NCBI GenBank assembly: GCA_029939595.1 | Contig: JAOZSQ010000001.1 | Location: 261,722-325,721, forward strand | From: Thermoplasmatota archaeon | GTDB taxonomy: Archaea; Thermoplasmatota; E2; DHVEG-1 | Length of the DNA stretch: 64,000 bases | Direction of reading: 5' to 3' | Shown: positions 38,191 through 50,986 of the stretch, piece after piece | How the letters are laid out: the number at the start of each line of letters is the position of its first letter | Numbering within the stretch: position 1 is the stretch's first letter | Position numbers and translations under genes: made by a program | The notes under the pieces: generated by a model | What the model was told of the DNA's origin: nothing | Database searches by the model: none | Seen by the model: only the letters and a program-made list of their open reading frames with translations

Positions 38191-38898
38191 ATGAAATTAG
38201 TTCTTTACCCATGTGGATTTTTAGTTAGTTATTATGATGGATTTATTAATGAATTAAAAAATAATGGAATTGTTTTTAATTCTTATCTTGGGCTTTCTGG
38301 TGGCGCAATAAGCTCAGTTACATCCTGTTTGGATATTGATTCCAAAAAAATTTGGAATGATATTGAATGTGATCTCTGGCAGGACCAGAAACCAGGATTT
38401 GTTAGCCGGTTCTTTAAACGAGAATTTAAAACACGAATAGTCGGTAACACAGCCGAACAAGAAATTCTTGATAAAATAAATGGGAAGGTAGTTATTGTCG
38501 CTGCTAAAGTACCCTCCTTTGATCTTACCTATTTTACACATTTTGAAACTGTTGATGATCTGAGAAGAAAAATGATGGCATCATCAACTTTGCCATATCT
38601 AATGTACCCATTTCCAGCCAAAATAAAAGATGATTATTATGTGGATGGTTGGTTTGGTTTGTTCAATAGATTGAATTTTCATATAAATAGTGAAAAGGCA
38701 ATTATTTTAAGGGCTAGTCCAGGATTTAAAGTGAGAATGTGTAAAATCGGAGATCATATTTGGAGAGTTAAAATACTGCTTCCAAAAATGATTTGGAAAA
38801 TATTTAGACCAACTAAAGAAATCATGTTAGATTGGTTTGAGGAAGGTAAAATGGCGGGACAACAATTTTTAGATAAATATTATATGGAGATTAAATGA
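38191..38898 (+). CDS. patatin-like phospholipase candidate
   Basis: GLSGGA (GxSxG nucleophile) and YYVDGWFG (DGx catalytic Asp). GGAGGATAGAATG ribosome-binding site. Confidence 0.35.
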   Translation: MKLVLYPCGFLVSYYDGFINELKNNGIVFNSYLGLSGGAISSVTSCLDIDSKKIWNDIECDLWQDQKPGFVSRFFKREFKTRIVGNTAEQEILDKINGKVVIVAAKVPSFDLTYFTHFETVDDLRRKMMASSTLPYLMYPFPAKIKDDYYVDGWFGLFNRLNFHINSEKAIILRASPGFKVRMCKIGDHIWRVKILLPKMIWKIFRPTKEIMLDWFEEGKMAGQQFLDKYYMEIK

Positions 38899-39437
38899 AA
38901 TTAATGTTATTGAAAACAGAGTTGGATGAATTGCTCTCTTTTATGGAGAATGAAGCAACAACTTTGGGTATTGGACGAGAAGATATTGATAAAATAGAAG
39001 TAGAAACAGCAGCTAATATGCGGTTTACTTTTCCTAGTCATACTAGTCAGTTAGAATTAATTAGACGTGTTACCAGACAGGTTGCTTCTAGTTTAAGTTT
39101 TACTGAGGAAGCTTTAGATGATATTGGGTTAGCTATTGATGAGGCTTGTGCCAATATTATAAATCATTCGTATACAGAATCAAGAAGTGGATTGATTACA
39201 GTTGATTTTGAATTGGATCAATCTAAACTTGTTATGAGATTAATTGATAAAGGTGAAGCAGGACAAACTTTTAATCCAGAATTACTCAATCCAGTGGATA
39301 AAGAAAAATATCTTAAAGTTCTGACTAAGGGCGGATTGGGTGTGTATCTTGTAAAGAAAATTATGGATGAAGTTGAATATACAGTTTGTCCAGGTATTTC
39401 TAATTGTTTAACAATGGTTAAATATACAGGTAGGTAG
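38895..39437 (+). CDS. RsbW/SpoIIAB-like anti-sigma factor serine kinase (GHKL ATPase)
   Basis: N-box DEACANIINHSY, G-box GGLGVYLVKKIMDEV. About 180 aa, typical of partner-switching kinases. Confidence 0.6.
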   Translation: MKLMLLKTELDELLSFMENEATTLGIGREDIDKIEVETAANMRFTFPSHTSQLELIRRVTRQVASSLSFTEEALDDIGLAIDEACANIINHSYTESRSGLITVDFELDQSKLVMRLIDKGEAGQTFNPELLNPVDKEKYLKVLTKGGLGVYLVKKIMDEVEYTVCPGISNCLTMVKYTGR

Positions 39438-39439
39438 TT

Positions 39440-39784
39440 ATGAAAACGCTTGAAATTATCACTAAACATGGAAATAATGTGTTAGTTATTGTGTTAAAAG
39501 GTCTTTTAAATGCTGATACTAGTCCAGGATTGGAAAAGACACTTATTGATGTTGTGGAGCAAGAATCCAAACCTCAAATTTTGTTGGATATGAAAGAATT
39601 AACTTATATTAGTAGTGCTGGTATTGGTTGTTTTATTGGAGTGATTAAAAGAATTAGAGTTAAACAAGGAGATCTTAGATTTTGTTCTCTTGATTCTAAA
39701 GTTATGCGAGTTTTTAATCTTTTAGATATGGCCGATTTTTTTCAGTTTTTTGAAACACAAGAAGAAGGAGTGAAAAGTTTTTAA
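39440..39784 (+). CDS. STAS-domain anti-sigma-factor antagonist (RsbV/SpoIIAA-like)
   Basis: VLKGLLNADTSPGLEKTL...ILLDMKELTYISSAGIG. 114 aa. A Ser in ISSAG is a possible phospho-acceptor. Confidence 0.6.
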   Translation: MKTLEIITKHGNNVLVIVLKGLLNADTSPGLEKTLIDVVEQESKPQILLDMKELTYISSAGIGCFIGVIKRIRVKQGDLRFCSLDSKVMRVFNLLDMADFFQFFETQEEGVKSF

Positions 39785-40533
39785 TGAAAAAGTTAATATT
39801 GTTTTTAATTGTGTTTTGTTTTATAGCAACAAACTGTTTTTCTGAAAATTTGTTTACAGTAACAGCAGAACCATATCCACCTTATGTCGGTCCAAAACTG
39901 AAAAATAATGGATGGACTTGGGTGGTTGCTAAAACTGCTTTGGAGAGGGTTGGATATAAAGCAAAATTGAAATATTTACCTTGGGCTAGAGCACTAATGA
40001 CAACTAAAGCAGGTAAAATAGATGGATTATTTCCCGCATTCTTTACAGTGGAAAGAACAAAAACATATTTATATTCAGTGCCGATAGCAGAAGCAAGAAC
40101 AGGTTTTTTCAAACTTAAAAAACGAACAGATATTGTTTTCAATGGCAATCTGAGAACAATGACAAAATATAGAATTGGAGTGGGTAGAGGTTATGCTACA
40201 AGTCCTGAATTTGACAATGCAACCTATCTAAAGAAAAGACTACAAATCAAATCAATACAAAGTTTGAAAATGCTTTGGAAAGGTAGATTGGATTTGGCAA
40301 CAGGAAGTGAATTAGTTGATGGTTATAATCTAAAACAACTAGAACCAAAATATCCTGGAATATCAAAAAAAATAATGTTTGTGGAACCACCTCTTACTAT
40401 TCAGTATTGTCATATGGCAGTATCAAAGAATGCACCCAACGCAGCACAAAAATTGGAAGATTTTAATATAGGTATGAGAATGATAATGTTGGACGGTACT
40501 TATATGAAAATTTTTAAGAAATATAATAAGTAG
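39784..40533 (+). CDS. secreted SBP_bac_3-like substrate-binding protein, paralog of 29687 gene
   Basis: Signal peptide MKKLILFLIVFCFIATNCFS, and EPYPPYVGPK parallels NPWPPYIFGK. Confidence 0.5.
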   Translation: MKKLILFLIVFCFIATNCFSENLFTVTAEPYPPYVGPKLKNNGWTWVVAKTALERVGYKAKLKYLPWARALMTTKAGKIDGLFPAFFTVERTKTYLYSVPIAEARTGFFKLKKRTDIVFNGNLRTMTKYRIGVGRGYATSPEFDNATYLKKRLQIKSIQSLKMLWKGRLDLATGSELVDGYNLKQLEPKYPGISKKIMFVEPPLTIQYCHMAVSKNAPNAAQKLEDFNIGMRMIMLDGTYMKIFKKYNK

Positions 40534-40592: not shown

Positions 40593-40985
40593 TTATTTCT
40601 TTTTACTATTCTGTTTACATAGTTTGGTTAGTTCTTTGGTACACTTTTTTTGATTTTTTGACTTTTGACAAGCTTTCTTGGCTTTTTGACTACAAGAACC
40701 TTTATAAGCACCATAAACGACACCTGTTACAGTCCCAATAGCAAGACCATACATACTACCAACTATAGCACCTAATCCCCCTGAAAGTTTCACATCATTT
40801 TTTCCTTGTCCAGATAACTTGGATACCGCTGCCATTCCCAAACCAGTGCTAACTGCACCAACACTTGAACCTATAGTACCTCCACTGGCTCCAGAAGCAA
40901 TTGCACTTCCTAGTTTGGAACTCTTGATGTGTTTGATACTTCCTGGTTTGGCTTTCTCTGTTAAATAACCTCTTCTATTAATCAT
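40593..40985 (-). CDS. glycine-zipper membrane protein with basic Cys-containing C-terminus
   Basis: Runs of GxxxG/SxxxG repeats (GASGGTIGSSVGAVSTGLGMAAV...GGLGAIVGSMYGLAIGTVTGVVYGAY). AGGAGAGATTATG ribosome-binding site. Confidence 0.55.
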   Translation of the reverse strand: MINRRGYLTEKAKPGSIKHIKSSKLGSAIASGASGGTIGSSVGAVSTGLGMAAVSKLSGQGKNDVKLSGGLGAIVGSMYGLAIGTVTGVVYGAYKGSCSQKAKKACQKSKNQKKCTKELTKLCKQNSKKK

Positions 40986-40993
40986 AATCTCTC

Positions 40994-41395
40994 CTATTTA
41001 TTTTTTTTTAAAGCGTTTATCATCGCTCGGTCTACCATATCCTTCCCACGATTTTTCAGTTTAGGTGGTTTGAAATCTCCCAAATTTGGATATTTATTGG
41101 CGATTTGTTTTCCTTGTTTCCTTGTTGTGAATGTTTCAAAATTACAGTCATCCATACTTGCTTGTTTTATACCATCACATACTTGTTCTTTTATCCAATC
41201 CGCATTTTTCATGCATTTGGTGTAGTTCTTTTCAACTTGTTTTATACATTTTTTCGTTTCTATTTTGTTTCGCCTATTTTTAAGTTTTGTGTTTACCTTG
41301 GAACCAAATTCTTTGACTTTTGTAACACCCATTTTTAATGCCGATGCAATTCCTTCATCTAACCTATTTTGTTTTATATGACATCTATTAATCAT
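40994..41395 (-). CDS. basic Lys/Cys-rich protein
   Basis: The second Met was chosen (MINRCHIKQ) because the RBS-plus-start string AGGAGAGATTATGATTAATAG duplicates that of the 40593 gene. Confidence 0.5.
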   Translation of the reverse strand: MINRCHIKQNRLDEGIASALKMGVTKVKEFGSKVNTKLKNRRNKIETKKCIKQVEKNYTKCMKNADWIKEQVCDGIKQASMDDCNFETFTTRKQGKQIANKYPNLGDFKPPKLKNRGKDMVDRAMINALKKNK

Positions 41396-41503
41396 AATCT
41401 CTCCTATAAAAAATATATTTATCATTATTTATATAGTCTCTTCATAAATAATAGAAAATCAGATAACACTATTTTTGGAACTCGTCTTTTTGACGATGCT
41501 TTT

Positions 41504-41589: not shown

Positions 41590-43848
41590 ATGGCGTTTAG
41601 TTTATCCCCTAGTGTTGACGTAACTGAAAAGGATCTAAGTGTATCAGTAGCAAATTTGCCTTCTTCAAAAACTGCAATGGTTGTTAAAGCAGCAACCGGT
41701 GAGGCTTTGAAAATTGTTCAGGTAACTAGCGTAGGTGACTTGGAAACTATATTCGGTTTCCCAACAAATTTTAACTATAAGGACTGGTTCAATGCATGGA
41801 ACTTCCTACAATATGCAAATTCACTTTATTGTGTTCGTCCATTGTCAACAAAAGCCCATAACTGTGCAGTTGCACTTTCAGGTGGGACCGGACAAGCTGA
41901 CGCTCCGGCTGCAATAGTTGACGCAGATGGTAATCCAACATTAGACGATAAAGGTGTTCAAACATACGGTGCAGCAAAATTAGGTACTGGTATGAAAGTT
42001 AATGAAGCAGTTAGTTGTGGAAAATTGTATAATTCAGATGTAGCAGAATTGAGACTCAATGCATTAGCAGAAGTCCCTTCCCTCACTAAAACATTCTTTG
42101 ACGTATCTATTGATGGCGTTTCAGGTGAAATTACTTCTAAAATTGTAAGTAACTTGGCAGGAAAAGAAATTAAATACGATAATAAAGAATACTATATTGA
42201 AGAAAATGTTTGGGAAAAAGCAGGTATTACAGAAGAATTGATGGATTCAGAAGGTGAAGTTACTTTAATTAAAAATTTTAAAGCAGTTAAAGTAGACCAA
42301 AGAACCGATGACGAAAAAACAGCAGAAAAAGATCCTTATTATACCAAAAAAGTGGTTATTGCTAAAGTATCAGCTTCTAAAAAGCTTCTTCTTGAAATGA
42401 CTGCCGATAATCCAGCACTTCCTGTTATGAGTAAATACGGCGTGACAGGCGCAGAAGTTAAAGAAGATCCAACAGGCTCATTTAAAGTTGCCGGTGCTGT
42501 CGCACCTAAATTGGTTCTCTATAACAGATATGTTACAAATGAACAAGATGTCGCAGTTTCAGTATGTTCATCAAAAGATTCTTGGAATAAACCTCTGTAC
42601 CTCGGAACAGCAGTTAAATTCTCAGACTTCTTTGACTATGAACCAGAATGGGATCAAGGACAATTCGTTATGATCGTGTTTAAGAAAAACCCACAAGGTA
42701 ACTACGAAAATAAAGAAGAATGGTTGCTCTCATATAACGTGAAAGGTAGAGATCATAATAATAGTAACATCTTCGCTGAAGAAGTTATTAAAAATAAATC
42801 AAAATACCTCTACGTTAAAGTAGGAACCAACGGCGATCCAGTTAATACCTCTTGTAACGAAATGATTGAACTTCAACATTCAACTTTTGAATCAGTTACT
42901 CCAAGAGAAGCTGACGTGTTTCCAACCATTTCAACTGAAGCTTATAAAAAATCAGCTATCGTTAACGCATGTGAACTCTTCTCAGATCCAGATTCGTTTG
43001 ATATTAATATCCTCGTGCAACCAGCAGAAGCACCTAATAAAATGTCAAACCTAGCTGAAACTAGAAAAGACTGTGTGGCTGTTATCGGACCATACGAACA
43101 TGATAATTTACTCGGTAAATCAAACGGCGAAGCTACTGCCTATATGACAGGAAAATACGGAACAGTTGCAGGTAAACCCGAATCTAAAGTGTATTCAGCA
43201 TTCGGTACATACTCAGCAGTATACGGTAATATGAAATATCAATACGATAAATACAACGATCTTAATCGTTGGGTTCCAGTATTGGGTGACGTTGCAGGTC
43301 TATACGCAGCAACAGATAAAGATTTAGACCCTTGGTGGGCACCAGCAGGTCTCTCCAGAGGTAAAATTAAGAATTGTATCAAACTAGCTTTCAATCCTAA
43401 TAAAGCTCATAGAGATGAATTGTATTATAATGCAATCAACCCAATTATGGGTGTGCCAGGAGAAGGAACAGCTATCGTTTGGGGTCAGAAAACAGCTACC
43501 GCCAAACCTTCAGCTTTCAACAGATTGAACGTAAGACGCTTGATGATCACGATTGAAAAATCAGTGGCTACATCAGCTAGATACTTCTTGTTTGAATTTA
43601 ACGATTCATTTACTAGAAACTTCTTCAAAGGTATGGTTGACCCATATCTCGGTGGAATCCAAAGTAGACGTGGATTGTACGATTATCTGGTTGTCTGTGA
43701 CGACTCTAACAATACACCAGAAATTATTGATCAGAATGGCTTGTGTTTGGATATATATGTTAAACCTACGAAAGTAGCTGAATTTATCAAAATCCAAGCG
43801 GTGGTCGTTAAAACTGGGGCGAGCTTTTCCGAAGCCATAGGAGCCTAA
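41590..43848 (+). CDS. tail sheath protein (T4 gp18-like)
   Basis: The N-terminal ~85 aa parallel T4 gp18 (…IVQVTSVGDLETIFG…AWNFLQYANSLYCVRPL against …QIKQVTNEVDLVNTFG…AMNFLQYGNDLRVVR). 752 aa. Confidence 0.85.
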   Translation: MAFSLSPSVDVTEKDLSVSVANLPSSKTAMVVKAATGEALKIVQVTSVGDLETIFGFPTNFNYKDWFNAWNFLQYANSLYCVRPLSTKAHNCAVALSGGTGQADAPAAIVDADGNPTLDDKGVQTYGAAKLGTGMKVNEAVSCGKLYNSDVAELRLNALAEVPSLTKTFFDVSIDGVSGEITSKIVSNLAGKEIKYDNKEYYIEENVWEKAGITEELMDSEGEVTLIKNFKAVKVDQRTDDEKTAEKDPYYTKKVVIAKVSASKKLLLEMTADNPALPVMSKYGVTGAEVKEDPTGSFKVAGAVAPKLVLYNRYVTNEQDVAVSVCSSKDSWNKPLYLGTAVKFSDFFDYEPEWDQGQFVMIVFKKNPQGNYENKEEWLLSYNVKGRDHNNSNIFAEEVIKNKSKYLYVKVGTNGDPVNTSCNEMIELQHSTFESVTPREADVFPTISTEAYKKSAIVNACELFSDPDSFDINILVQPAEAPNKMSNLAETRKDCVAVIGPYEHDNLLGKSNGEATAYMTGKYGTVAGKPESKVYSAFGTYSAVYGNMKYQYDKYNDLNRWVPVLGDVAGLYAATDKDLDPWWAPAGLSRGKIKNCIKLAFNPNKAHRDELYYNAINPIMGVPGEGTAIVWGQKTATAKPSAFNRLNVRRLMITIEKSVATSARYFLFEFNDSFTRNFFKGMVDPYLGGIQSRRGLYDYLVVCDDSNNTPEIIDQNGLCLDIYVKPTKVAEFIKIQAVVVKTGASFSEAIGA

Positions 43849-43984: not shown

Positions 43985-44932
43985 ATGCCAACAAATATAG
44001 TGTATACATATCAAATAGTTAAAGAATTTATAGAAAATAAAGGTTGCGAGTTAATTTCTACAACATATCAAAATTGCAAAACTGATTTAGAAATTAAATG
44101 TGAATGTGGAAACATATTTTTTCGTAGTTTTGATCATTTCAAAAATTCTAAACAAAGAAATTGCAAGAAATGCCGATATATCAAATCATCAAAATCCCAA
44201 CGTAAGTCCTTTTCAGAAGTAAAAACAAATATAGAAATAACAGGATGTGATTTACTATCTACAGAGAACGATTATAAGAATATTAAATCTAAGTTGCATG
44301 TTAAATGTAAGGATTGTGATAATACTTTTTTAAGAACATATGAGAAAGTTGTTAACCAAAAACAGTTCTTTTGTTCTGAATGTACTAATTTTTCCCGATC
44401 TAAAAAACATACCCGATTTTTTCAATCAGTAAAAGATGAAATTGATGCTACTGGTTGTGTGCTTTTATCAACTGAATATATTTCTAATAATGATCCGCTT
44501 CATATTAAATGTAAGGAGTGTAATAGTACATTTTATAGAACGCTTTCTGTTTTTCAAATGCATGAAGCATATTATTGTGATGTGTGTTCTAAACATCAAT
44601 CTAAAGATGTTCGTAAGGTGGAAGAATATTTAAAATTTCAAAAATTTAATTACGAGAAAGAATTCCGTTTTTCTGATTGCCGAGGCAAGAAATACCCATT
44701 GCCTTTTGATTTTGCCATTTTTAAAGAAGATGGTTCCATTAATTTTTTAATAGAACATATGGGAGAGCAACATTTTACTCCAAAGGAATGTTTTGGTGGA
44801 GAGGAGGCTTTTAAAAAGACTCTTATTAATGATGATACGAAGGTTAGATATTGTGAAGAAAACGAGATAGATTTGTATTATACTTATCCAAATATTGATC
44901 CAGATAACATTCGTTTTAGGAAGATTTGTTGA
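43985..44932 (+). CDS. zinc-ribbon-repeat protein with C-terminal DUF559/Vsr-like PD-(D/E)xK nuclease motif
   Basis: Three ~75-aa repeats (IE..GC.LLST.Y...KC.xC.N.F.R...C..C), then LPFDFAIFKEDGSINFLIEHMGEQH. Confidence 0.4.
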   Translation: MPTNIVYTYQIVKEFIENKGCELISTTYQNCKTDLEIKCECGNIFFRSFDHFKNSKQRNCKKCRYIKSSKSQRKSFSEVKTNIEITGCDLLSTENDYKNIKSKLHVKCKDCDNTFLRTYEKVVNQKQFFCSECTNFSRSKKHTRFFQSVKDEIDATGCVLLSTEYISNNDPLHIKCKECNSTFYRTLSVFQMHEAYYCDVCSKHQSKDVRKVEEYLKFQKFNYEKEFRFSDCRGKKYPLPFDFAIFKEDGSINFLIEHMGEQHFTPKECFGGEEAFKKTLINDDTKVRYCEENEIDLYYTYPNIDPDNIRFRKIC

Positions 44933-45085: not shown

Positions 45086-46156
45086 ATGATTAAATTGCAA
45101 TTACACCAAAAACTTTCTTATTATGCAAGTAAAGATAGGGAAGGATTTGAATTAACTTTGGATGAAGCGGATATATTAATTCAGGTATTACAAAATCATC
45201 CTGATTATAACGAAATTATTGGATGTGGAATAGATAGAATAGTTATAGAAGGAGGAATTTTTTTTCTTATTAGAAGAGATAGTAATAAGGTTAAGTTGGA
45301 TTTGCGTAAGTGTGTGTATGGTGGTGGAATGATGGATGACAAAAGTGACATGGAGAAAATGTATGAAGCGTGTCGGATTGCCATCATGGATTATAGAGAA
45401 GAGTTTGAGATTAACCAAATTAGAAGTAAAGTATATTGTCCTTATACTGGAGAGTTATTAACCAAAAAAACATCATATGTTGATCATATGCTTCCTTTAA
45501 CTTTTAAAAAAATAATAGAACAATTTATAGATCATGAAGATTTATCTTTAAGTGATATAAAATTTATTAAATTTATTGAATATGGTGGGTGGTATAATTT
45601 ACCTTCACAATTAAAGGAGTCGTTTATAAAATATCATAGGGAGTGTGCTATATTGCATTTGTTGAAAATTCCAGGTAAATCTGAAGATATTTTAGAAGAT
45701 TCTTCTAAGGAAAATATTCCGTTTAGAACGAGTTTTAATTTAACGGTGTTCAAACAGGGTTCATTCAAAGACACCAAATCAAAATCTTTTAAATATTATA
45801 AATCAGACAGGCCAACTTTATTTTATATAGAAGAAAGTGATGATCCTGTAAAAAACAAATTTTTAAAGTCGTTTGCTGGTGTTATGGGTTCATTTACTAC
45901 ACATATTTTAAGAAAGTATTATCCCATAAAAAAACTATTGGAAGGTGATTTATTGTCTTCAATATTTGAAGAATATGTGAATAATCCTTCTTTAATTTCC
46001 AATAAAAATGGTGAAAAAACGGTTCATGAAAAAATGTTAGATGGTTATGCGAATGAAGAGGTTAAAATGAGTTTAATGAACATTTATCATCGGATTAGAG
46101 AAGGGTATTATGATGAACATAAGTTTCAATTAAAGCAAAAGGATAATGTTGCATAA
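45086..46156 (+). CDS. putative HNH-family endonuclease
   Basis: CPYTGELLTKKTSYVDHMLP (C-x-Y-x-G...DH..P) and later YHRECAILH. Confidence 0.35.
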   Translation: MIKLQLHQKLSYYASKDREGFELTLDEADILIQVLQNHPDYNEIIGCGIDRIVIEGGIFFLIRRDSNKVKLDLRKCVYGGGMMDDKSDMEKMYEACRIAIMDYREEFEINQIRSKVYCPYTGELLTKKTSYVDHMLPLTFKKIIEQFIDHEDLSLSDIKFIKFIEYGGWYNLPSQLKESFIKYHRECAILHLLKIPGKSEDILEDSSKENIPFRTSFNLTVFKQGSFKDTKSKSFKYYKSDRPTLFYIEESDDPVKNKFLKSFAGVMGSFTTHILRKYYPIKKLLEGDLLSSIFEEYVNNPSLISNKNGEKTVHEKMLDGYANEEVKMSLMNIYHRIREGYYDEHKFQLKQKDNVA

Positions 46157-47939: not shown

Positions 47940-47973
47940 TGGTTGTTAAGCCATATTTTATTTTTATGGTGAA

Positions 47974-48002
47974 TTGACCATATTGTTTGAATTTGCTAGA
48001 AT
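47974..48002 (+). promoter_or_regulatory. sigma70-like promoter TTGACC-17-TAGAAT
   Basis: Lies in the noncoding region before the iterated repeats. Confidence 0.35.
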
Positions 48003-48009
48003 GTGATTT

Positions 48010-48160
48010 TGTTCGTTATTTTATACGTTAACCGGTATAAGGGGTTAAATATAGCACATTAACTAGTCTTAACTGGTATAATGGTCAAAATAAAGACCGT
48101 TATAGGGGATAATTAACATATTAACCGTTATAGCGGATAACAATTTAACTAATGAGGTAA
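48010..48160. repeat. iterated short-repeat noncoding region
   Basis: TTAACCGGTATAAGGGGTTAA, TTAACTGGTATAATGGTCAAAA, ACCGTTATAGGGGATAATTAAC and ACCGTTATAGCGGATAACAA. That is at least four copies of a ~20-nt motif (GTTATAG[GC]GGATAA / GGTATAA[GT]GG) within 150 nt. Confidence 0.6.
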
Positions 48161-48162
48161 AA

Positions 48163-48393
48163 ATGGCAAGAGTACGCACAACCAAGAGGAACAAAAGAAC
48201 GGGTTCTCTTTTATATAAAGATGTTGTAACTGGTAAGTATTATAATGATGTGAATTCAATGGATGAAGTTGAATCCATGTTAATTGTAGGCGAAGTTGGA
48301 AATCTTTATGGATCTGGTGGGTCCGACACCTATTTTTCAGGTGGCGGAAATGATTGTGATGGTTTAGATTCTAATTGTGGTGATGGTTGGTAG
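48163..48393 (+). CDS. small Gly/Asp-rich hypothetical protein
   Basis: ORF with a GAGG ribosome-binding site. Confidence 0.4.
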   Translation: MARVRTTKRNKRTGSLLYKDVVTGKYYNDVNSMDEVESMLIVGEVGNLYGSGGSDTYFSGGGNDCDGLDSNCGDGW

Positions 48394-48394
48394 T

Positions 48395-49069
48395 TTACAC
48401 AAACTGGTTATCGTATTCTGAATTAAATGCTTGCAAACCGATATTTTTTATCATTTCTTTTCTCCATTTATAGTTTCGTTCTGGTATATCCCGCCAATTA
48501 AGAGTAAAGGGTGCTAATTCATTGGTGCCTTTTATTGTTTTTTTCCATAACTTATGAAAGTGATTTTCTCCGTGTGGAATGGAGAGGAGAACATTTTTTT
48601 GAGATATGGGAATTACGTTTGTATAAAAATCCCCCCAAATTTTGTCTTCTACATAAGCTATTTCTGTAGCGATTAACACATCAAGTCTTATTCCTTTTAT
48701 AAATGGTCTTATGCTATTGGCAATGATCCTAGATCCATTTTTAAAGATTATTGTTAGGTCATTGCAATGGTCTATTAATGGTGATCCTTCCAACATCAGT
48801 TTTATTTTTTTAATTTCTTCTTTAGCATAATCCAATTTTGTTAAAAATAATCCTATAGTTGAGTATTGGTTATAGCAAGCATACCATGCGGTGTATAGTC
48901 TTAATGCTGTGCTTGAGCCACATTGTCTGGATGAGTTGATTACTGTGAAGTTATTTTCTTGGATATGTTCTAAAAGGGCTTCATCGTGATCCCGAAGTGT
49001 GAGTGGAATTAATCCTTCATCGTAGTTTATTATTTTACAAAATTCTGCGAATTCTTTTAATGATTTCAT
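48395..49069 (-). CDS. terminase-large-subunit-like ATPase domain only (no nuclease domain)
   Basis: Walker A NSSRQCGSSTAL and Walker B VLIATEIAYV, collinear with the 8206 terL ATPase half. 224 aa. Confidence 0.6.
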   Translation of the reverse strand: MKSLKEFAEFCKIINYDEGLIPLTLRDHDEALLEHIQENNFTVINSSRQCGSSTALRLYTAWYACYNQYSTIGLFLTKLDYAKEEIKKIKLMLEGSPLIDHCNDLTIIFKNGSRIIANSIRPFIKGIRLDVLIATEIAYVEDKIWGDFYTNVIPISQKNVLLSIPHGENHFHKLWKKTIKGTNELAPFTLNWRDIPERNYKWRKEMIKNIGLQAFNSEYDNQFV

Positions 49070-49110
49070 TTTTTCCTTGTTTAGTTGGTGATAAATAGAG
49101 GTAACAGTAT

Positions 49111-49269
49111 TTATGTTGGGTGATAGTGTCTTCTTAGTGTTTCTCCATTATGGGTAATAAATTTGGTGAGGATGAGATTAGTTTGTTCTTTATTTAGAGA
49201 TTTTTTATAATGTCTAAGATATCGTTTTAGGATTCTTAATTCTAATAGTAAAAATTGTTGGTTAGTCAT
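49111..49269 (-). CDS. 52-aa basic mini-ORF upstream of the terminase-like ATPase
   Basis: MTNQQFLLLELRILKRYLRHYKK... Below the track cutoff and lying immediately 5-prime of the minus-strand ATPase gene. Coordinates are approximate, within a few nt. Confidence 0.25.
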   Translation of the reverse strand: MTNQQFLLLELRILKRYLRHYKKSLNKEQTNLILTKFITHNGETLRRHYHPT

Positions 49270-49343
49270 TTTTTACTCTTTGGTTTGAAGTTAATTTTTA
49301 ATGGTTAACTATTTTATTATTATTTATAATGAGGAGATGATTT

Positions 49344-49598
49344 ATGAAGAAGAAAAAGAAGAAAATTTCATTAAAAAAACTGGTAAAAAAAACATTGAAT
49401 GATGATTTTGATGATGGGATTTGTTTAAGTTGTTGTTTTTGTAAAAACACGGAAGAAAATTCAATTTTGATGGGCGGACCGATAGCTTATATTTGCGATG
49501 AATGCATTCACAGATATGCGAAGGAATTGGATAAAAATGCATTGGATAATGGGCTGAGAAATCAAAAAGGGAAGGTTAGTGAGAAAAGGTATTGTTAA
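49344..49598 (+). CDS. ClpX N-terminal zinc-binding-domain-like small protein
   Basis: LSCCFCKNTEENSILMGGPIAYICDECIH parallels the ClpX zinc-binding domain C-S-F-C-G-K...L-I-A-G-P...Y-I-C-D-E-C. Poly-Lys N-terminus. Confidence 0.5.
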   Translation: MKKKKKKISLKKLVKKTLNDDFDDGICLSCCFCKNTEENSILMGGPIAYICDECIHRYAKELDKNALDNGLRNQKGKVSEKRYC

Positions 49599-49719
49599 AT
49601 TTTGGTTTGGATTCTGAGGTCATTTCAAGGGCATTCCGAATATATATTAGAAACTGGTTTAAATTTTGGTTTATGGCATTTTACTAAATAGATTGTAAGA
49701 GAAGAATTTGATTATAAAT

Positions 49720-49816: not shown

Positions 49817-50365
49817 ATGGCAGGTATTAAATTAAGCGATTTTAGAGCACATGCTACTGATGTTTCTAGGATGAACAGATTTTTTGTTGCTTTTAATGGT
49901 GCATATGGCATTATTGACGATGATGAATATTTAGCAAAGTCAATAGCTATTCCAGCGAGAGAAATAGGGAATTGTGAACTTGATTGGCAGGGTCAGAAGA
50001 TGAAGCTTGCTGGTGATCCGACTATTGGTGATTTAACCATTGGATTTTGGAACAAATATAATTTCAATTTACGTAAGAAATTTCAAATGTGGTCTACGTT
50101 TGTTGCTGGAACAGTTCCAAATACAAGGGGAAGACCAGTTGTAATGGGCGGAACAAATGCTTATAAATGTGATAAGATTACTGTTAGGACATTGGATGGA
50201 ATAGGTGCTGAGACTAACAAGTGGATATATAAGGATTGTTTCCCAACAAGTGTTGCTGAAATTGGTTTGGATATGGGTTCCGCAGACACACCTGAAGAAT
50301 ATGATGTTACATTTTCAGTAGAACAGACAGGTAATCCTTCTGTAGTTACAGGAATGAATTCATAA
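49817..50365 (+). CDS. tail tube protein (gp19-like), copy 1
   Basis: Paralog of the 50414 gene: SIPAREIGNCELDWQG, CFPTSVAEIGLD. GAGAGGAAAAAATG ribosome-binding site. Confidence 0.7.
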   Translation: MAGIKLSDFRAHATDVSRMNRFFVAFNGAYGIIDDDEYLAKSIAIPAREIGNCELDWQGQKMKLAGDPTIGDLTIGFWNKYNFNLRKKFQMWSTFVAGTVPNTRGRPVVMGGTNAYKCDKITVRTLDGIGAETNKWIYKDCFPTSVAEIGLDMGSADTPEEYDVTFSVEQTGNPSVVTGMNS

Positions 50366-50413: not shown

Positions 50414-50986
50414 ATGCCTACAATTTTATTAAAAGATTTTAGGTCAAAATTAACTGATGCCGCTAGACCTAACAGGTTTTTGGTACGTTTTTCAAATTTA
50501 CCAGCACTTCCAGGTATTAAAGATTGGATGATTGATGATGATTGGTATCAATGTAAAACGGCGAGTATTCCTGCGAAGGAAGTAGGAAGTTTTGAACTTG
50601 ATTGGCAAGGTATGAAGAGAAAAATCGGTGGAGATCCTACATATGGTGATCTAACACTTGGATTTTGGAGTCATGAGGATTATGGTTTGCGTTTAGGATT
50701 TGAGCAATGGATTGAGTATATGGCAGGAATGCTTACTAATGAAAGAGGTCCTGGTGGATCAAAAGACACAGCTATTGATTACAAAACTAATATTATTGTA
50801 AGTCAGCTTGGTAGAGGTGATGCGAGTAATGTTTTGGAAGAATATGCATATGATGGATGTTTTCCAACTAGTGTTGCTGAGATTGGTTTAGATCAATCGT
50901 CTGCTGATACCCCACAAGAGTTTGACGTAACATTTGCAGTTGATGTATCAGATCATGTGGCGATAGGAGCAAGTAAAGTATTATAA
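50414..50986 (+). CDS. tail tube protein (gp19-like), copy 2
   Basis: LTDAARPNRFLVRF resembles T4 gp19 FARPNLFQVEI. Shares blocks with copy 1. Confidence 0.75.
   Translation: MPTILLKDFRSKLTDAARPNRFLVRFSNLPALPGIKDWMIDDDWYQCKTASIPAKEVGSFELDWQGMKRKIGGDPTYGDLTLGFWSHEDYGLRLGFEQWIEYMAGMLTNERGPGGSKDTAIDYKTNIIVSQLGRGDASNVLEEYAYDGCFPTSVAEIGLDQSSADTPQEFDVTFAVDVSDHVAIGASKVL

Follow-up and report, generated by a model that had tools for sequence, protein, structure and literature searches.

We analysed a 64,000-nucleotide stretch of DNA (contig JAOZSQ010000001.1 of assembly GCA_029939595.1, positions 261,722 to 325,721 of the forward strand; hereafter the window) and found that a minus-strand gene located between tail sheath and tail tube genes encodes a 224-amino-acid (aa) paralog of the large terminase subunit (TerL), in which the fold of the TerL ATPase domain is kept and the nucleotide-binding signature is replaced. 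Judged from its sequence, this protein appears to be a natural pseudo-ATPase derived from TerL, which is the core finding of our study. On one side, the paralog gene adjoins a 76-aa gene preceded by an array of four repeats, and on the other side a gene for a free-standing ClpX-type zinc-binding domain (ZBD); apparently, the locus consists of three adjacent accessory units that are separately transcribed. The explanation that we tentatively adopt, rating it slightly below an even chance, is that the paralog is a non-catalytic TerL mimic that would modulate or poison assembly of the packaging motor, and that the three units are separate and do not constitute a module. The region's proteins sit together on a single 426,929-bp contig (in NCBI and in the Logan run SRR21545386), and the source of the window is an orphan, AT-rich, uncultured giant T4-like phage of ~427 kb. 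The window itself is AT-rich (32.7% GC), with coding almost all on the plus strand.

The TerL ATPase paralog and its relatives

The paralog was 29% identical to the resident TerL of the window (E = 9e-32, 109–114 bits), matched residues 120–324 of T4 gp17 (E = 2e-19), and aligned by tblastn to thousands of phage TerL sequences (best E = 1e-33). A HMMER scan of 1.84 billion representatives returned 2,823 matches to it at E ≤ 0.001, none of them more than 38% identical. Although the match to Pfam Terminase_6N (14.4 bits) was under the gathering score of 22, the phmmer, tblastn, and PHROG matches make the homology secure. We also considered phrog_5989 as a family specific to dead copies of TerL, which was ruled out because the real TerL matches it too.

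An AlphaFold2 (AF2) model of the paralog, based on a 62-sequence alignment, had a predicted local distance difference test score (pLDDT) of 96.6 and a predicted TM-score (pTM) of 0.92. Foldseek searches with this model ranked four T4 gp17 structures at the top, including 2O0J and 2O0H (query TM-score, TMq, 0.86–0.87), followed by other TerL ATPase domains, and superposition on gp17 gave a root-mean-square deviation of 2.3–2.7 Å. As modeled, the paralog folds well and corresponds to a whole TerL ATPase domain, with both the Rossmann-type core (called NsubI in T4 gp17) and the pair of helices that closes the domain C-terminally beside the hinge. It has the same fold as the gp17 ATPase domain (Terminase_6N; 2O0H, 2O0J, and 3CPE), is collinear with gp17 residues ~114–347, and keeps the S-x-P-x-G motif, the residues aligned with Arg162 and Glu256, and the C-terminal helix pair, while its span is comparable to that of a 250-aa PDB construct of P74-26 TerL. 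In contrast to gp17, it lacks the conserved N-terminal ~50–110 residues and the RNase H-like nuclease domain, and its gene is separate from that of the real TerL, lies on the opposite strand, and has foreign-looking codon usage.

The open reading frame (ORF) of the paralog stops at the ATPase/nuclease boundary, confirming the original prediction for this DNA, made from the sequence alone, that it is collinear with the ATPase half of TerL and ends before any nuclease domain. The conserved TerL N-terminal motif is missing together with the nuclease domain. A hidden Markov model (HMM) of the conserved TerL N-terminus found nothing upstream of the paralog in any frame (control: E = 2.7e-29 for the real TerL), and a nuclease-domain HMM found nothing in any frame of the interval from 44 to 50 kb (control: 1e-70 for the real TerL); a nuclease-domain relic 3′ of, or under, the 76-aa gene was thereby ruled out. 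Given that no N-terminal or nuclease relics were found, the paralog represents a cleanly excised ATPase core rather than a recently broken full-length gene.

Residue conservation was assessed in 127 canonical TerL sequences, and the paralog was aligned to the 150 nearest homologs, to the resident TerL, and to T4 gp17. Four near-invariant residues of the nucleotide-binding and catalytic motifs were replaced: the Gln of the adenine-binding Q-motif (canonical Y-Q, H-D in the paralog; Q29D; 98% conserved), the Lys of Walker A (canonical G-K-[ST], T4 K166, G-S-S within SRQCGSST in the paralog; K52S; 97% conserved), the Asp of Walker B (canonical hhhhD-E, T4 D255-E256, LIAT-E in the paralog with the Glu kept; D135T; 99% conserved), and the Thr of the coupling motif or C-motif (canonical S-T-P, S-I-P in the paralog; T164I; 100% conserved). 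The segments SSRQCGSST and LIATEIAYV, first quoted as Walker A and Walker B, are thus present in the protein but degenerate, with Ser in place of Lys and Thr in place of Asp. Given that these four residues were replaced, the paralog does not qualify as the accessory packaging ATPase that had been suggested, and its sequence indicates that it very probably can neither bind nor hydrolyze ATP, nor cut or translocate DNA. Conversely, 27 of the 39 positions conserved in at least 80% of the canonical sequences were retained (69%, versus ~30% overall identity). Among them were Arg48 (aligned with T4 Arg162), Gln49, Gly51, and Glu136 (aligned with T4 Glu256), as well as Ser163, Pro165, Trp192, Pro196, Arg198, and Glu218, residues of the C-terminal helix pair included.

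The window paralog is not the only protein of this kind. Ten of the 150 nearest 50%-identity clusters (~7%) lack the Walker A Lys and have no nuclease domain, and the comparator dead paralogs were checked as complete genes that were not clipped by contig ends. Two of them are encoded by complete genes that stand alone and precede genes on the opposite strand: P0016 (299 aa, SRKCGSST) and P0106 (308 aa), the latter identical on 11 contigs, of which some measure 0.2–1 Mb. Four others (P0071, P0124, P0021, and P0143) each lie directly 5′ of, and co-oriented with, a canonical TerL gene, to whose product they are 33–40% identical and which encodes intact G-K-[ST] and L-D-E motifs. These pairs occur in four independent metagenomic phage lineages (L012:3110-4850; L013/L014:6001-8614; L015:2106-5102; L016:5880-8058, with L017 likewise), and of the six related dead paralogs with a readable gene context, four are arranged in tandem with TerL. 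P0137, which has a Pfam RHH_1 domain, probably shares this layout 5′ of TerL. Sub-threshold matches were obtained to RHH_1 at the N-termini of P0071 and P0124 and to a helix-turn-helix (HTH) domain of the MerR/excisionase type in P0101, and P0008 (L011) contains two tandem dead ATPase domains in one protein.

Given that four members lie directly 5′ of a canonical TerL gene, this class is tied to the terminase. The slot that they fill is that of the small terminase subunit (TerS) in T4-type genomes, and a scan of upstream small ORFs in three of the tandem-paralog contigs gave no match to a TerS family. In filling the slot 5′ of TerL, and in some cases having a DNA-binding-type domain, the tandem dead paralogs resemble TerS (T4 gp16), but there is no sequence or fold relationship between the two, and the window paralog is off-slot, without a DNA-binding domain, and matched by no TerS family of PHROGs or Pfam. 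Isolated phages were considered as carriers of an ATPase-only TerL, but the best tblastn places (LR756502, XacN1, MA9V-1, pT24, and C48C1) were ordinary full-length TerL genes. Our literature search found no description of dead, duplicated, or Lys-less ATPase-only terminase paralogs.

The window paralog scored 198 bits against an HMM of the dead paralogs, compared with 176.6 ± 3.4 bits against size-matched canonical-TerL HMMs and 188.8 bits against the HMM of all 127. Neighbor-joining grouped it with the other dead paralogs, with pairwise distances to dead and canonical proteins alike (0.62–0.67) and long-branch attraction as a possible cause. The window paralog shares with these proteins its C-terminal limit, the ...F-x-x-E-Y/F-x-x-x-F boundary that precedes the nuclease; none of them has the Walker A Lys, 'CGSST' is shared by P0016 and the window paralog, and Walker B or the C-motif is degenerate in several. 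On the other hand, the others are longer (290–400 aa, versus 224 aa here) and include the N-terminal motif of TerL or else a domain of the RHH or HTH type; the Gln of the Q-motif and the Thr of the C-motif, both absent from the window paralog, are present in most of them. Additionally, while four of six are in tandem with TerL, the window paralog lies 39 kb away on the opposite strand, although P0016 and P0106 also stand alone.

Adjacent units and the sheath-tube interval

Between the sheath gene and the paralog lies the 76-aa gene, which the original prediction had missed and which converges on the paralog gene with stops 1 nt apart (Table 1). Its codon score was 0.332, compared with 0.305 ± 0.116 for real genes in 52-codon chunks. 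The predicted protein has a strongly basic N-terminus and an acidic C-terminus rich in Gly, Asp, Ser, and Cys, with a weak RTX-repeat-like match (E = 0.013); no family, structure, or PDB match was found for it, and its AF2 model was uninformative (pLDDT 47).

Table 1. Positions of the paralog, the adjacent elements, and other features mentioned in the text (numbering of the window).
Feature	Position	Strand	Remarks
Candidate TerS, 188 aa	4555–5121	+	phrog_445 (E 2.4e-5) and phrog_735 (E 8.4e-5), 'terminase small subunit'; moderate evidence
Two adjacent genes of ~450 aa	5508–6866 and 6863–8206	+	directly 5′ of TerL; match the same three PHROGs of unknown function
Canonical TerL, 576 aa	8206–9936	+	intact Walker A PRQSGKST, Walker B LILDE, and C-motif STP; nuclease domain
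Partner-switching-like set	38191–40533	+	consecutive genes; Pfam: faint patatin, HATPase_c_2, STAS, SBP_bac_3
Other minus-strand pair	40593–40985 and 40994–41425	-	normal codon scores, inverted GC skew
T4-type sheath	41590–43848		
HNH/homing endonuclease	43985–44932	+	directly 3′ of sheath gene; phrog_559 (E 9.3e-48), phrog_9084 (E 8e-22)
DUF3223 protein	45086–46156	+	Pfam E 3.6e-5, above cut-off; PADLOC HamC/HamC2 models E 6.8e-10
Sigma70-like promoter, TTGACC-17-TAGAAT	47974–48002	+	TG 5′ of -10 (extended -10); 10/12 match; faces repeats and 76-aa gene
Repeats R1–R4 (~20 bp)	48028–48048, 48069–48089, 48093–48112, 48121–48140		
76-aa gene	48163–48393	+	ribosome-binding site (RBS) GAGG; called by public gene caller
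TerL ATPase-domain paralog, 224 aa	48395–49069	-	likely RBS AAGGA 5 nt before ATG
Intrinsic-terminator-like hairpin	48503–48546	+	15-bp stem and T-run; free energy -16.1 kcal/mol, z -3.96
Basic 52-aa ORF	49111–49269	-	5′ of paralog; probably not a gene
Free-standing ClpX-type C4 ZBD, 84 aa	49344–49598	+	C30-x2-C33...C51-x2-C54; RBS GAGGAG; called by public gene caller
Tail-tube paralogs, tandem	49817–50365 and 50414–50986	+	both Phage_TTP_2 / phrog_45; 46% identical

The stretch of ~150 nt that had been described as noncoding DNA downstream of the ATPase gene does contain four copies of a ~20-nt repeat, in agreement with the earlier count of at least four. However, the 76-aa gene lies in between, and given that the repeats are located between the promoter and the RBS of that gene (48153–48157), they belong to its leader. 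The sigma70-like promoter reported at 47974 was recovered, with a TG dinucleotide in addition. Since promoter-like matches in the region showed no excess over shuffled sequences (16 versus 14.3), support for it is positional rather than statistical.

The repeats follow the dyad-symmetric consensus TTAACCG-kTATAr-sGGwTAA, with 11 invariant columns over the four copies within 113 bp, and R4 is a perfect TTAWCCG-N6-CGGWTAA palindrome. They are located at about +19 to +131 of the predicted transcript, 5′ of the RBS. The motif occurs nowhere else in the 64 kb (0 expected in shuffles), which ruled out a phage-wide promoter or regulon motif, and a scan of a genome-contig collection to which the source contig does not belong yielded only 32 scattered single chance matches. 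The leader as a whole folds better than shuffles (z = -3.2); single repeats form RNA hairpins no more stable than those of shuffles, and Rfam had no match for the leader, so that RNA hairpins and a known RNA family were both ruled out. Given that single repeats lack stable hairpins, protein binding at the DNA level is favored. Most likely, the four repeats represent a putative operator array for a dimeric DNA-binding protein gating the 76-aa gene, which would fit their dyad symmetry and their placement 3′ of a strong extended -10 promoter. Known arrays of comparable design include the iterons of lambda ori and repressor operator clusters. The window sites resemble them in being four clustered, promoter-proximal sites of ~20 bp with internal dyad symmetry, and their length and number fall within those of iterons (direct repeats of 17–22 bp, at least three), but they differ in lying inside a 5′ leader instead of 5′ of, or overlapping, the promoter. 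Within R4, the 15 nt at positions 48132–48146 of the plus strand match exactly the right half-site of lac operator O1 from E. coli (AGCGGATAACAATTT); this is probably a coincidence, as one half-site only is involved, even though none would be expected in shuffles.

We suggest that the first unit may run from the extended -10 promoter through the leader with its four dyad-symmetric sites and the 76-aa gene to the hairpin and T-run terminator. The terminator-like hairpin overlaps the 3′-terminal part of the 224-aa gene in antisense orientation. Termination of the 76-aa transcript would thus take place within this part of the paralog gene, and the two units would collide, perhaps making their expression mutually exclusive.

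On the other side of the paralog, the earlier identification of a free-standing ClpX-like zinc-binding domain held. The ZBD protein matched Pfam zf-C4_ClpX (E = 1.2e-5; 25.5 bits, 1.5 below the cut-off of 27) and the NCBIfam model of the ClpX N-terminus (E = 2.5e-4), the ClpX models covering positions 6–50 only. By phmmer, it matched the E. coli ClpX ZBD structures 2DS7, 2DS5, and 1OVX (E = 1.5e-4) with all four Cys aligned, and its six best PDB matches were all ClpX. In total, three profile libraries were in agreement with these structure matches. Like the ClpX ZBD (1OVX, 2DS5-8), it has the C-x2-C...C-x2-C spacing and a G-P-x-x-Y-I-C-D-E-C core, aligning with E. coli ClpX residues ~8–41, but unlike ClpX, it has 84 aa, a poly-Lys N-terminus, and no AAA+ module. 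The codon score of its gene (0.207) is gene-like, and the only other ORF with a C-x2-C...C-x2-C pattern in the window is that of the HNH endonuclease. A word search of 5.8 billion clusters found no homolog of this protein, and a literature search retrieved nothing relevant on free-standing ClpX ZBDs of phages. In ClpX, the ZBD forms a dimer onto which SspB, RssB, and substrates such as lambda O dock (PMC7804408). A free ZBD might titrate ZBD-dependent adaptors or substrates, or pair with the ZBDs of host ClpX, either of which could shift ClpXP substrate choice. Beyond adjacency, we found no link between the ZBD protein and the terminase paralog. An exact 14-nt direct repeat (TTAAATTTTGGTTT) occurs at 49595–49608 and 49659–49672 of the plus strand, 64 nt apart, between the ZBD gene and the first tube gene.

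The basic 52-aa ORF reported on the same strand as the paralog is present, but it has a codon log-odds score of -0.19, like spurious ORFs (-0.227 ± 0.164), and was not called by the public gene caller. This low score is less decisive if the ORF was acquired together with the atypical 224-aa gene. No family matched it, TerS families of PHROGs and Pfam included. A frameshifted TerL N-terminus was ruled out, as tblastn of 150 TerL sequences and the N-terminal HMM were empty upstream of the paralog in any frame, and so was a split-off ribbon-helix-helix (RHH) domain (hhalign probability 0.3%, no Pfam RHH match). It seems preferable to regard positions 49070–49343 as the 5′ region from which the paralog and ZBD genes diverge. 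The single functional module first proposed for these elements finds no support either: only adjacency unites the four pieces, their strands and codon usage differ, and the 76-aa unit has promoter-like and terminator-like sites of its own. PADLOC gave no defense or anti-defense matches for the four ORFs of the locus.

The locus lies in the sheath-tube interval, as had been noted, yet it does not interrupt an otherwise tight operon. Given that this interval holds five further plus-strand genes, the HNH endonuclease gene among them, the paralog locus is part of an accessory island rich in mobile DNA. The endonuclease, which has the second-lowest codon score in the window and two C-x2-C...C-x2-C motifs, marks the interval as an insertion hotspot for mobile DNA. 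Within the same island, the DUF3223/HamC-like gene is an instance of a defense-associated domain (Hachiman-associated genes) on a phage. At the end of the interval, two tandem tube genes are present, where canonical T4-type phages have a single one. We also confirmed that the locus is the only sizeable minus-strand block of the window besides the pair at 40.6–41.4 kb, for which no family matches were found in PHROGs, PADLOC, or NCBIfam. Upstream of that pair, a HATPase_c_2 domain (anti-sigma kinase type) and a STAS domain (anti-anti-sigma type) are encoded inside the structural region of the phage. Near the beginning of the window, the two genes directly 5′ of TerL look like tandem paralogs and fill the space between the TerS candidate and TerL. 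Given that this candidate exists, the 224-aa paralog is not needed for a TerS role in this phage.

The phage itself is isolated in sequence space. The closest isolate TerL was 39% identical to that of the window, and the closest foreign relative of the tube protein was 34% identical. No matches were obtained by blastn of the window against phages. No close relative emerged from IMG/VR scans with the tube protein and the paralog, nor from word-indexed searches in which the ZBD protein was used along with these two, and the tube proteins, like the paralog and the ZBD protein, each formed a single-member cluster. The lack of close relatives is the main limit of our analysis of the locus (gene, repeats, and arrangement).

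Role of the paralog

In the DNA of the locus (33% GC), a random codon is a stop with p = 0.088, and 224 open codons would arise by chance with a probability of ~1e-9. In simulations of neutral drift from a TerL-like sequence, the ORF remained intact in 9% of cases at 90% identity, 1% at 80%, 0.1% at 70%, and in 0 of 2000 at 35%. Drift alone is unlikely, as replacing the four invariant residues would need more change than the ORF survives. Given that the frame is open, that fold-determining residues are kept, and that simulated drift breaks the ORF far earlier, we consider a decayed pseudogene, as in the terminase duplicate envisaged originally, unlikely, with some room left for it by codon usage. 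The paralog gene had a codon log-odds score of 0.003, the lowest among genes of at least 150 aa, compared with 0.294 ± 0.064 (minimum 0.144) for other genes, and its synonymous-usage score was the lowest in the window. Plus-strand GC skew stays positive over the paralog, whereas it is inverted over the minus-strand genes at 40.6–41.4 kb. The paralog also scored higher against foreign TerL sequences (130 bits) than against the resident TerL (109–114 bits). Given this atypical codon usage and skew, which fit both the scores to foreign TerL sequences and the nearby homing endonuclease, the paralog probably has a horizontal origin or a long evolutionary history separate from that of the resident TerL. 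Its gene may be weakly expressed or under relaxed selection.

According to the explanation that we tentatively favor, the paralog would structurally mimic the TerL motor domain and could occupy docking sites of the TerL ATPase domain on the portal clip, on a neighboring TerL subunit, or on TerS. Such occupancy would modulate or block assembly of the packaging motor, either that of the phage itself (timing) or that of a co-infecting T4-like phage (competition). Homology and fold, the lost motifs, the extent of the domain, the arrangement of the genes, and the occurrence of similar dead paralogs elsewhere are observed, whereas we infer every binding partner and the direction of any effect. A link of the paralog to the terminase is plausible because tandem relatives exist, and an interference or timing role fits better than that of an obligatory subunit because the window copy is stand-alone, antisense, and foreign-looking. 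In T4, it is the ATPase ring that faces the portal clip, with contact residues that seem to be located in a helix-loop-helix near the hinge, and motor pentamers accept one to three dead subunits with a fall in efficiency (PMC9958956). As summarized in that source, engineered Walker A-mutant gp17 subunits enter the T4 pentamer and reduce packaging efficiency (Dai et al., 2021). By likeness to poison subunits of ring ATPases, a dead motor copy could co-assemble with, or compete against, active subunits; however, the dead gp17 subunits were full-length point mutants made in the laboratory, whereas here the protein is natural, separately encoded, and limited to one domain, with putative co-assembly.

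A broader and bolder version of this explanation, which we think unlikely to hold as a whole, is that the Lys-less ATPase-only TerL paralogs are unrecognized non-catalytic terminase subunits, some fused to RHH or HTH domains and, in the TerS slot of several uncultured T4-like phages, perhaps acting in DNA recognition or regulation. The window copy would then be a trimmed, horizontally acquired version turned into a stand-alone packaging-interference protein that might cap portals or poison the TerL rings of competitors, or delay packaging of its own phage.

Several observations weigh against a TerL mimic acting on packaging. Losses at motif residues (4 of 8) were not significantly enriched relative to those at other conserved positions (8 of 31; Fisher p = 0.18). 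The paralog lacks the N-terminal ~50 residues of TerL, and its atypical codon usage and strand skew are also expected of a poorly expressed or decaying passenger. Its grouping with the dead paralogs may be a long-branch or convergence artifact, as distances are 0.62–0.67 either way. The window has its own TerS candidate far away, so that the analogy with the TerS slot is not directly transferable. Furthermore, no DNA-binding protein was identified for the repeats, and no close relative of the phage was found anywhere in the IMG/VR, word-indexed, and blastn scans.

The paralog could instead be an inert passenger, a foreign TerL fragment brought in by homing-endonuclease-associated or illegitimate recombination, functionless and with its frame still unbroken. 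Such an origin is compatible with its extreme codon score and atypical strand skew, with its orphan status (no relative above 38% identity), with the missing catalytic residues and the trimming of both termini, and with the HNH endonuclease of the same island. In canonical T4-type genomes, moreover, TerL adjoins sheath and tube, and a TerL fragment could travel with mobile DNA linked to these genes. Nevertheless, we judge a passenger unlikely, since an open frame of this length would hardly arise by chance and drift would have broken it before the four invariant residues could change, and since highly conserved structural positions are kept far beyond overall identity. The clean domain limits, the ATG with a likely RBS, and the lack of relics of the missing parts also argue against it, as does the maintenance elsewhere of comparable Lys-less paralogs such as P0106, identical on its 11 contigs. 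The fold of the TerL N-terminal domain might instead have been reused as a scaffold for something unrelated to packaging, for example nucleic-acid binding or the regulation of a host or phage protein. The distance of 39 kb from TerL, the opposite strand, the accessory genes around it, the loss of the TerL N-terminus, and the absence of an encoded packaging partner nearby would suit such neofunctionalization, but it appears quite unlikely given the physical coupling of four of the six readable relatives to a canonical TerL and the retention of features across the whole ATPase domain, including the C-terminal helix pair. We rate as very unlikely that the paralog is an immune decoy, that is, a dead ATPase domain that baits TerL-recognizing host sensors (STAND NTPases of the Avs1-3 type) and sequesters them without productive activation. 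Avs1-3 sense TerL, and counter-defense genes are often placed in accessory islands of phages; Foldseek recovered the Avs3-TerL complex 8DGC among the TerL matches, and a DUF3223/HamC-like gene lies in the same island. In the Avs3-TerL structure, however, recognition reportedly involves the nuclease site as well as the nucleotide-bound active site of the ATPase, neither of which the paralog has; no PADLOC or anti-defense family matched it, and a sensor-binding bait would be expected to trigger rather than silence the sensor.

Two further explanations descend from the original prediction and concern the locus as a whole. A pac or ori site in the repeats, on which an accessory packaging ATPase would act together with the 52-aa protein, would explain why four clustered, dyad-symmetric 20-bp repeats that are unique in 64 kb resemble iterons or terminase-binding boxes, and why a promoter reads into them, as at transcription-activated origins, of which lambda ori and T4 oriE are examples. 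We find this highly improbable: the 'ATPase' lacks the Walker A Lys, the Walker B Asp, and the Q-motif, the 52-aa ORF looks non-coding, and the repeats occupy the leader of a separate, well-supported gene, between its promoter and RBS, with TerL 39 kb and the TerS candidate 43 kb away and no initiator gene, AT-rich unwinding element, or skew switch seen nearby. A parasitic, satellite-like mini-element that hijacks packaging is extremely improbable. The opposite strand, the atypical composition, and the terminase-related gene speak for it, but the segment measures only ~1.7 kb, and a dead ATPase without a nuclease cannot package anything. In contrast to phage satellites, including elements like phage-inducible chromosomal islands, no integrase, replication module, capsid, capsid-remodeling, TerS, or packaging-redirection genes and no att repeats were found in it, nor any convincing flanking direct or inverted repeats.

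Implications for terminase biology

All tailed phages share TerL as their hallmark enzyme, and TerL-like ORFs are routinely annotated as 'terminase large subunit.' The locus described here indicates that some of these ORFs are likely natural pseudo-enzymes, in which the motor fold is kept and the nucleotide-binding signature is replaced. ORFs of this kind lead to mis-annotation and introduce spurious branches into TerL phylogenies. The adjacent free ClpX ZBD would represent a plausible and simple means for a phage to retune host ClpXP. If paralogs of this class are indeed non-catalytic partners or inhibitors of the terminase, they would constitute a new component of a very well-studied machine, could account for the difficulty of finding TerS in some phage lineages, and would provide a natural 'dead subunit' for probing motor coordination.

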